A stretch of 16,817 nucleotides of DNA from a virus, in the UHGV virus genome UHGV-0175824. One strand, given 5' to 3'. A program made the position numbers and the translations under genes. The notes under the pieces were generated by a model. The model was not told where the DNA came from. It saw only the letters and a program-made list of their open reading frames with translations, and searched no databases. Below are positions 7,500 through 8,156 of the stretch, piece by piece (position 1 is the first letter of the stretch; the number at the start of each line of letters is the position of its first letter).

Positions 7500-8156
7500 T
7501 TATGAACTATAATAAGTCCTAATCTTTACAGATGAAAGCATAATCTTCCAAGCTTGATCGCTACCCAACCACTCATCGTTGGTTGGTTCATTATCACCAG
7601 ATACTACATAAGTATCTGGCATATCAAAGTCTATATTGCAAAGGTCTTCTCCTTTGCGCTCCTTAAAAATAAGAAGATCTATTTTTGTTGTTGGGAATTT
7701 TTTATCCAAAACACTTCTCAGTTTATACACAGCATCTCGTTCTGCATTCAATCTAACGAGTAAAACACGTTCCGACTCATTGATTTTCTCTATAAATCTT
7801 TTTCTTCTCGCCTTTATTTTTTTCATCATATTAAACAAGCAGACTTCAATACCTTGTTTTTCATAGTCATCAATAAGAATATCGTGAATACTTCGAAATC
7901 CAGTCGCTGTATCTGTGATATCAATACAATTTTTAAATCTGCCATTAATTTTTATATTTTCAGGCAAGAAAAGGTGGTCGCACCCATTATTAATTATTTT
8001 TGTAACTTGAGGTAGTTTTTGAGAGGCAAACCAATCAAATGGTCCACTAAATGTCCTCAACCCAAGTCGCTTTAACCTTCCTGCTGGTTGACATTTTTTA
8101 CCAAGGCTTGCTATAAAATCATACTCTCCACAAGGAAGAAAAAGGCCTTTATTCAT
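7500..8156 (-). CDS. Hypothetical cytoplasmic protein (218 aa) of the AT-rich moron cassette; possibly a papain-like/DUF1796-type fold (very tentative)
   Basis: Track ORF 7500-8192. ATG at 8156 has AAGGA 5 nt upstream; ATG at 8192 is an alternative. No signal peptide. Lys/Arg-rich. N-terminal LPCGEYDFIASLGKKC. Confidence 0.75.
   Translation of the reverse strand: MNKGLFLPCGEYDFIASLGKKCQPAGRLKRLGLRTFSGPFDWFASQKLPQVTKIINNGCDHLFLPENIKINGRFKNCIDITDTATGFRSIHDILIDDYEKQGIEVCLFNMMKKIKARRKRFIEKINESERVLLVRLNAERDAVYKLRSVLDKKFPTTKIDLLIFKERKGEDLCNIDFDMPDTYVVSGDNEPTNDEWLGSDQAWKIMLSSVKIRTYYSS

Follow-up and report, generated by a model that had tools for sequence, protein, structure and literature searches.

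INTRODUCTION

P22-like phages carry serotype-conversion genes, among them gtrABC of P22, oac of Sf6 and neuO of CUS-3. The YopJ family and the arylamine N-acetyltransferases are thiol acetyltransferases that were first taken for cysteine proteases.

Here we analyse a 16,817-nt stretch of DNA (UHGV virus genome UHGV-0175824; 'the window'), a segment of a P22-like (Lederbergvirus-type) phage genome that also holds early genes, ejection proteins and the tail needle. Between its attP/int region and its tailspike gene lies a small cassette with two divergent genes, one encoding a 218-aa protein and the other an SGNH/GDSL enzyme. We find that the 218-aa protein is an ordinary member of a known, uncharacterised family, DUF1796, and consider the pair a candidate for the modification of bacterial surface glycans.

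RESULTS

The 218-aa reading frame is a constrained gene

The minus-strand ORF that stops at 7500 opens mechanically at ATG 8192 (230 aa), and an internal ATG at 8156 in the same ORF yields 218 aa. We favour the shorter product (7500–8156, minus strand) since homologues, exemplified by the N-terminus of a Pseudomonas homologue, MNRKLELPVGEYDF, begin at the position equivalent to ATG 8156, since a Shine–Dalgarno-like AAGGA can be read from the sequence 7 nt 5′ of this codon (8164–8168, minus strand), and since the −10 hexamer of a promoter-like site (TTGACT-17-TATGAT with an extended TG; 8216–8188, minus strand) overlaps ATG 8192. On the same homologue N-termini and the Shine–Dalgarno and promoter positions we reject the 230-aa start. 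Note that the promoter-like site, with 10 of 12 consensus positions, is a consensus match only, and that the region holds fewer such sites than shuffled sequences do (4 versus a mean of 10.9).

The gene is under purifying selection (dN/dS of 0.15 against the allele of E. coli PK5), and a HMMER search of a library clustered at 50% identity retrieved 2025 family representatives at E ≤ 1e-3; 7500–8156 is therefore a real, constrained gene and not a chance ORF, which bears out the 218-aa ORF that an earlier reading of the letters alone (the sequence-only reading) had placed here. The protein is basic (pI 8.94; 36 K+R versus 30 D+E) and has no hydrophobic segment, the Kyte–Doolittle maximum over 19 residues being 0.63, and thus has neither a signal peptide nor a transmembrane segment, as the sequence-only reading had said with regard to charge and export. 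The N-terminal segment that it had singled out, LPCGEYDFIASLGKKC, corresponds to residues 7–22.

Comparison with the PK5 allele (L025, 5021–5677) uncovered a mosaic: the 3′ 477 nt of the gene (7500–7976) are identical in the two, and the 5′ 180 nt (7977–8156) are just 58–77% identical. The sharp change at 7976/7977 points to a recombination junction inside the DUF1796 gene. In PK5 the diverged 5′ part goes with an SGNH gene of 48% identity and with another tailspike. The simpler description of a constant DUF1796 gene with a swapped SGNH gene (94% versus 48% identity) was revised accordingly. E. coli EC19 (L031, 3626–4177) has an annotated DUF1796 gene that lacks its 3′ part and encodes 184 aa, perhaps a sign that the gene is decaying in that prophage.

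The protein belongs to DUF1796 and has an invariant Cys and His

The 218-aa protein matches Pfam DUF1796 (PF08795, labelled 'putative papain-like cysteine peptidase') at 62.5 bits against a cut-off of 23 (E 5.7e-17). RefSeq agrees, naming the cassette genes 'DUF1796 family putative cysteine peptidase' and 'GDSL-type esterase/lipase', and has already given the DUF1796 name in 34 E. coli genomes. The earlier statement that the protein could not be placed in a family does not hold.

We aligned 107 diverse members, which are 20–59% identical to the query except for one 94% allele. DUF1796 is the only family that any of them matches. Gly19, Cys22 and His91 are present in 107/107; position 41 is Asp in 106 and Glu in one. 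Conservation reaches at least 92% for each of Trp42, Arg34, Arg117 and Asp92. Nine members have G, N or P in place of Ser17, which is thus not the nucleophile.

The family ranges over Gram-negative and Gram-positive bacteria and giant viruses. In the literature searched we found no mention of DUF1796 or PF08795 and no member with an experimentally established function. NCBIfam and PHROGs gave no match for the protein, and sequence searches of the PDB, with the single protein as well as with the 107-sequence profile, returned chance matches only and no solved relative. No housekeeping-enzyme homologue was found either; the sequence-only reading had named clear homology of that kind as evidence against itself. 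Within the family, the protein belongs to a close subfamily of 52–62% identity. Scans for related loci found just 1, 3 and 5, few because the close subfamily is rare; the wide family alignment is too divergent for pattern scanning.

The predicted fold departs from the papain type

An AlphaFold2 model built from the 107-sequence alignment (pLDDT 95.8, pTM 0.91) predicts a fold of alternating strands and helices. In the model Cys22 sits in a loop after strand 14–17, directly before helix 23–30; a Cys at a helix N-terminus with His91 downstream in the sequence is a feature of papain-like (clan CA) cysteine peptidases. From its Cys/His/Asp content, the protein had been suggested as a possible thiol hydrolase fold. 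The part of this proposal that concerns the chemistry fits, given an invariant Cys22, an invariant His91 and an all but invariant Asp41; as to the fold, the model does not support a papain type. Papain-like, NlpC/P60, transglutaminase and arylamine N-acetyltransferase (NAT) structures are absent from the top 60 structural neighbours, and Foldseek against the PDB returned nothing at E ≤ 1e-3.

The structural neighbours of the model include PatB, OatA-C and the Salmonella lipopolysaccharide acetyltransferase 6se1, which we take to be OafB. Profile–profile comparison (hhalign) of DUF1796 with the SGNH partners gave a probability of 0.8%, none of the 107 members has a GDSL Pfam match, and the GDS, GxND and DxxH blocks are absent from them. 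Given the negative profile–profile comparison, we make no claim of homology between DUF1796 and SGNH enzymes; the resemblance that the model suggests is topological and weak, a lead rather than a relationship.

When the model was compared with the viral structure library BFVD, Foldseek matched giant-virus DUF1796 proteins. Those matched with confidence and labelled as papain-like peptidases come from moumouvirus, megavirus, catovirus, Bodo saltans virus, ChoanoV1 and Yasminevirus. A further match is to a 615-aa protein of Pyramimonas orientalis virus that bears the name glycosyltransferase.

An exported SGNH enzyme is the constant divergent partner

The partner gene (8274–8888, plus strand; 204 aa) encodes a protein with a Pfam Lipase_GDSL_2 match (E 1.2e-20). 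Homologue alignments show conservation upstream of 8352, the equivalent of the RefSeq start, so that the gene most likely begins at ATG 8274, with TTG 8262 as the alternative. A start at 8157, back-to-back with the DUF1796 gene at the CATATG located at 8154–8159, had been raised as a possibility; it is unlikely, because it would add 39 residues that are not conserved. The two genes thus share a divergent intergenic region of 117 nt (8157–8273), in line with the 91–109 nt of homologous pairs and with the earlier statement that the starts lie within roughly 120 bp. As judged from this conserved divergent spacer of 90–120 nt, shared regulation of the two genes is plausible.

Database gene models treat this N-terminus differently. 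RefSeq and a phage record place the GDSL start at the 8352 equivalent (178 aa; L001, 7030–7566), and so lose the hydrophobic leader along with residues that every homologue conserves, and the annotated start in PK5 lies too far upstream (240 aa). Going by the alignments, the database N-termini of the SGNH partner gene models are probably wrong.

The window protein begins with a hydrophobic export signal and has the GDS, G, GxND and DGxH blocks and two invariant cysteines; in the E. coli version the hydrophobic N-terminus is short and lacks a basic n-region. The homologues carry N-terminal signal peptides and complete catalytic blocks, with the Cys pair invariant in all, and these features place the SGNH partners in the periplasm.

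Wherever flanking sequence is present, members of the close DUF1796 subfamily are divergent to a GDSL gene. Among 5426 complete E. coli genomes, 32 have the cassette at ≥99% identity and two pig isolates have a variant pair; in all 34 carriers the two genes are adjacent and divergent, and neither occurs alone in any genome. One GenBank phage, vB_EcoP-683R2, also has the cassette, with its SGNH protein annotated as 'lysophospholipase L1-like esterase'. Beyond E. coli, the 52–62% homologues with their divergent GDSL gene lie in KpsC/KpsF/KdsA/KdsB-type capsule loci, both in Pseudomonas genomes and on related metagenome contigs, together with KpsC-type Capsule_synth, KpsF, KdsA-like, CMP-sugar synthetase/phosphatase, hexapeptide and TagF-like genes. 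A second phage has the same divergent pair beside an 837-aa protein and lysis genes. Another homologue, which adjoins a Peptidase_S74 tail protein, lies at the end of its contig, so that any partner gene would be cut off.

The sequence-only reading had proposed co-occurrence with the SGNH gene as a check on its idea of a constant partner. The E. coli carriers, the Pseudomonas-type capsule loci and the second phage all speak for it, and no cassette without the DUF1796 gene, an outcome named beforehand as refuting, was found. Distant SGNH homologues (29–37% identity) do occur without DUF1796, in Vibrio phages and uncultured gut bacteriophage sequences.

The cassette is a mobile unit in a serotype-conversion slot

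The tyrosine integrase gene (5589–6767, minus strand; Pfam Arm-DNA-bind_3 and Phage_integrase) is followed by an attP-type region (6800–7445) that includes a small ORF (7039–7287, 82 aa) and is common to phages Sf101 and mEp234. In Sf101 the shared int/attP region is 93% identical, the 82-aa ORF included, and is followed by O-acyltransferase B (oacB) in the equivalent slot and then by the tailspike gene.

By its similarity edges and base composition, the cassette is a mobile unit of 7323–9000, with a GC content of 28–34% against 43–50% in the flanks. At the left edge, about 7323, similarity to argW/IntS-type E. coli prophages begins and runs rightward into the tailspike. These prophages have a different integrase, which indicates that the cassette moves between phage backbones. 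Pfam over the cassette finds DUF1796 and GDSL only, and no Gtr, AT3 or hexapeptide acetyltransferase; there is no third gene and no MBOAT/AT3 membrane acyltransferase.

The window shares its type of integrase and attP with Sf101, mEp234 and phage 2851; in most of the E. coli genomes that have the cassette, IntS at the tRNA-Arg gene (argW) is found instead. The window has the arrangement of an unintegrated phage, as it runs without a break from the integrase gene through the attP-type region (5589–7445) to the tailspike side. Elsewhere in the window, a 164-aa ORF (1977–2471, plus strand) has a sub-threshold match to the Mom family of DNA modification proteins (24 bits versus 27.1, E 3.5e-5). 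For three plus-strand ORFs of the early region, 3761–4561 (266 aa), 4606–4917 (103 aa) and 4968–5339 (123 aa), Pfam gave nothing at E ≤ 1e-3.

The tailspike has a propeller region related to capsule-locus proteins

Convergent with the SGNH gene is the tailspike gene (9008–11407, minus strand; 799 aa), whose product combines a P22-type head-binding domain (Pfam Head_binding, E 4.4e-66) with a central 5-bladed β-propeller-like region (weak Phage_RBD_prop match). This type of tailspike occurs in 44 genomes, at least 10 of which, e.g. LF82, have no cassette.

The region encoded by 9920–10660 (minus strand) is homologous to 331–348-aa proteins of the Pseudomonas capsule loci (23% identity, pairwise E 7e-9), with which it shares EPEGL and QG motifs. 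These propeller proteins adjoin the GDSL gene (L004 3847–4842, L012 4121–5125, L008 3142–4152 and L010 4076–5122) and have hydrophobic, signal-peptide-like N-termini. It follows from this homology that DUF1796, SGNH and propeller protein travel together in both phage and capsule-locus settings; the sequence similarity hints at such a capsule locus as the common source of the cassette and of the receptor-binding or enzymatic domain of the tailspike.

The wider family keeps company with glycan genes

DUF1796 domains are found fused to RgpF, to polysaccharide pyruvyl transferase, to GT2 and to GT8 plus GT4. Since the window protein has no export signal and its relatives are fused to cytoplasmic transferases, it is predicted to be cytoplasmic. 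One distant member adjoins GT2 and epimerase genes, and a B. cereus plasmid member adjoins genes for a nucleotidyltransferase, a glycosyltransferase and CDP-glucose 4,6-dehydratase. The surroundings of a Priestia plasmid member are little informative, and none of the genes called around one distant Paenibacillus member is a glycan gene.

In Priestia megaterium and related Priestia species a single plasmid can hold as many as five DUF1796 matches, one of which lies within the same 20-kb stretch as a sulfotransferase gene. In B. cereus-group megaplasmids one match adjoins CDP-sugar genes. The Priestia and B. cereus plasmid matches (H118–H145, e.g. L028; L029) may be related to spore-surface glycans.

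DISCUSSION

Our preferred reading, to which we give a probability of roughly 0.5, is that the DUF1796 thiol enzyme and the exported SGNH enzyme form a portable module for modification of capsule or O-antigen, i.e. a lysogenic-conversion cassette, with acyl chemistry the likeliest. As the pair occupies the slot of the surface-sugar-altering genes of P22-like phages, it most likely decorates bacterial surface polysaccharide rather than cutting proteins.

The following sequence of events would account for the observations. Cys22, at the predicted N-terminus of a helix, would act with His91 and probably with Asp41, in a triad of presumed geometry, and carry an acyl group as a thioester; the DUF1796 enzyme would have the glycan, or a precursor of it, as its substrate at the cytoplasmic side, and the addition, movement or removal of ester groups in the periplasm would fall to the SGNH enzyme. 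The likeliest chemistry would be acyl (O-acetyl) transfer or editing, which we infer from a slot equivalent to that of oacB, a partner directed at esters, the neighbours of the model in structure space and the chemistry of the Cys and His, taken together. Expression from the prophage would alter the glycan that this kind of phage recognises, and thereby change serotype and superinfection. The two enzymes may also act independently, since the cassette has no membrane acyltransferase to link the two compartments. Also counting against glycan conversion are the occurrence of the same tailspike without the cassette (in at least 10 of 44 genomes), the called neighbourhood of the Paenibacillus member, which is free of glycan genes, and the little informative surroundings of the Priestia plasmid member.

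A bolder form of this proposal concerns the family as a whole and is speculative. DUF1796 proteins could be unrecognised, mislabelled thiol-dependent glycan O-acyl transferases or esterases on an SGNH-like α/β scaffold, either convergent with SGNH or very distantly related to it, and in this subfamily, together with a periplasmic SGNH enzyme, could form a two-compartment acylation/editing system that phages captured as a conversion cassette of a new type. Such a system would need no membrane acyltransferase.

Of the alternatives, the one that survives best, unlikely as we judge it, is that DUF1796 modifies a glycan or precursor by other than acyl chemistry, attaching a different substituent or acting as an amidase or transglutaminase-type enzyme on amino-acid-decorated sugars, next to an SGNH protein that is an independent esterase. 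The glycan-context evidence applies to it equally, the results are compatible with more than one transferred group, and the conserved Arg34 and Arg117 could bind many anionic substrates. However, invariant Cys/His chemistry is most often acyl-enzyme chemistry, and the obligate, ester-directed SGNH partner of the subfamily and the oacB-equivalent slot point to esters.

Lipid remodelling is somewhat less probable still. Here DUF1796 would be an LRAT/HRASLS-like thiol acyltransferase or phospholipase, working with a periplasmic, lysophospholipase-like SGNH enzyme; their substrate would be either the anchor of ABC-transporter-type capsules, (lyso)phosphatidylglycerol-Kdo, or acyl chains of LPS or phospholipids. 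The polymers of KpsC/KpsF-type capsule loci carry a lipid-Kdo terminus, and it is in such loci that the close homologues lie; the 'lysophospholipase L1-like esterase' annotation of the phage SGNH protein also fits. Against this, the family extends to Gram-positive bacteria and giant viruses, is fused to or found beside glycosyltransferases and pyruvyl transferase, and in phage takes a slot otherwise used for O-antigen decoration, and the NCBIfam TesA match of the SGNH protein, at 15 bits, is far below the cut-off of 270.

That the protein is what the databases call it, a papain-like cysteine peptidase with a protein of the phage or the host as its substrate, beside an SGNH neighbour that is functionally unrelated or a second hydrolase, we regard as improbable. 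The Pfam, RefSeq and UniRef names all say so, and an invariant Cys followed by an invariant His, with the Cys at a helix N-terminus in the model, is what such an enzyme would have. Nevertheless, the structure comparisons yielded no papain-type structure among the top 60 neighbours and no significant PDB match, leaving the 'papain-like' label unsupported by the model at the level of the fold. Least probable of all is prophage defence or superinfection exclusion that leaves glycans unmodified, e.g. through a toxic lipase effector with its regulator: low GC, divergent transcription and a moron hot spot at the prophage end would suit it, but PADLOC has no match for either protein, which rejects a known defence system, the same pair is integral to chromosomal Pseudomonas capsule loci, and an exported SGNH protein with a predicted cytoplasmic DUF1796 protein does not fit a toxin–immunity pairing.

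DUF1796 is large (2025 clusters at 50% identity), spans bacteria to giant viruses and has no characterised member; its functional name is unsupported by the predicted structure and the genomic contexts, and the family is probably misnamed. For establishing what the family does, the cassette of the E. coli prophages is a good entry point, as it is small and genetically tractable. If the cassette does alter capsule or O-antigen, it would add a new type of enzyme to glycan decoration and phage-driven serotype conversion, serotyping as well as vaccine and phage-therapy targeting would be affected for clinical E. coli lineages that carry it, and database annotations would need correcting.

Several known systems resemble the cassette in part. 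Like the exported SGNH domains or proteins of PatA/PatB, OatA, the AT3–SGNH fusions (OafB) and the alginate system AlgI/J/X, the partner enzyme comes with a second protein; unlike them, the cassette has for its second protein DUF1796, which lacks any hydrophobic segment, whereas those systems need an integral-membrane MBOAT or AT3 protein for passage of the acetyl group. Compared with the SGNH/GDSL hydrolases themselves, DUF1796 is missing the GDS, GxND and DxxH blocks, and a Cys replaces the Ser. With YopJ and the arylamine N-acetyltransferases it shares an invariant Cys and His, an acidic residue and a peptidase label on what may be an acyl-transfer enzyme; we detected no relationship to them in fold or sequence, so that they serve as a mechanistic precedent only. 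The closest parallel is with the serotype-conversion genes of P22-like phages, typified by oacB of Sf101: the slot between attP/int and tailspike is the same and the insert is likewise foreign in base composition, but in place of an AT3 membrane acyltransferase, a Gtr protein or a hexapeptide-repeat transferase the window has a soluble Cys/His protein and an exported SGNH enzyme. The cassette varies this known theme of phage serotype conversion with a pair of enzymes that had not been connected with it before.
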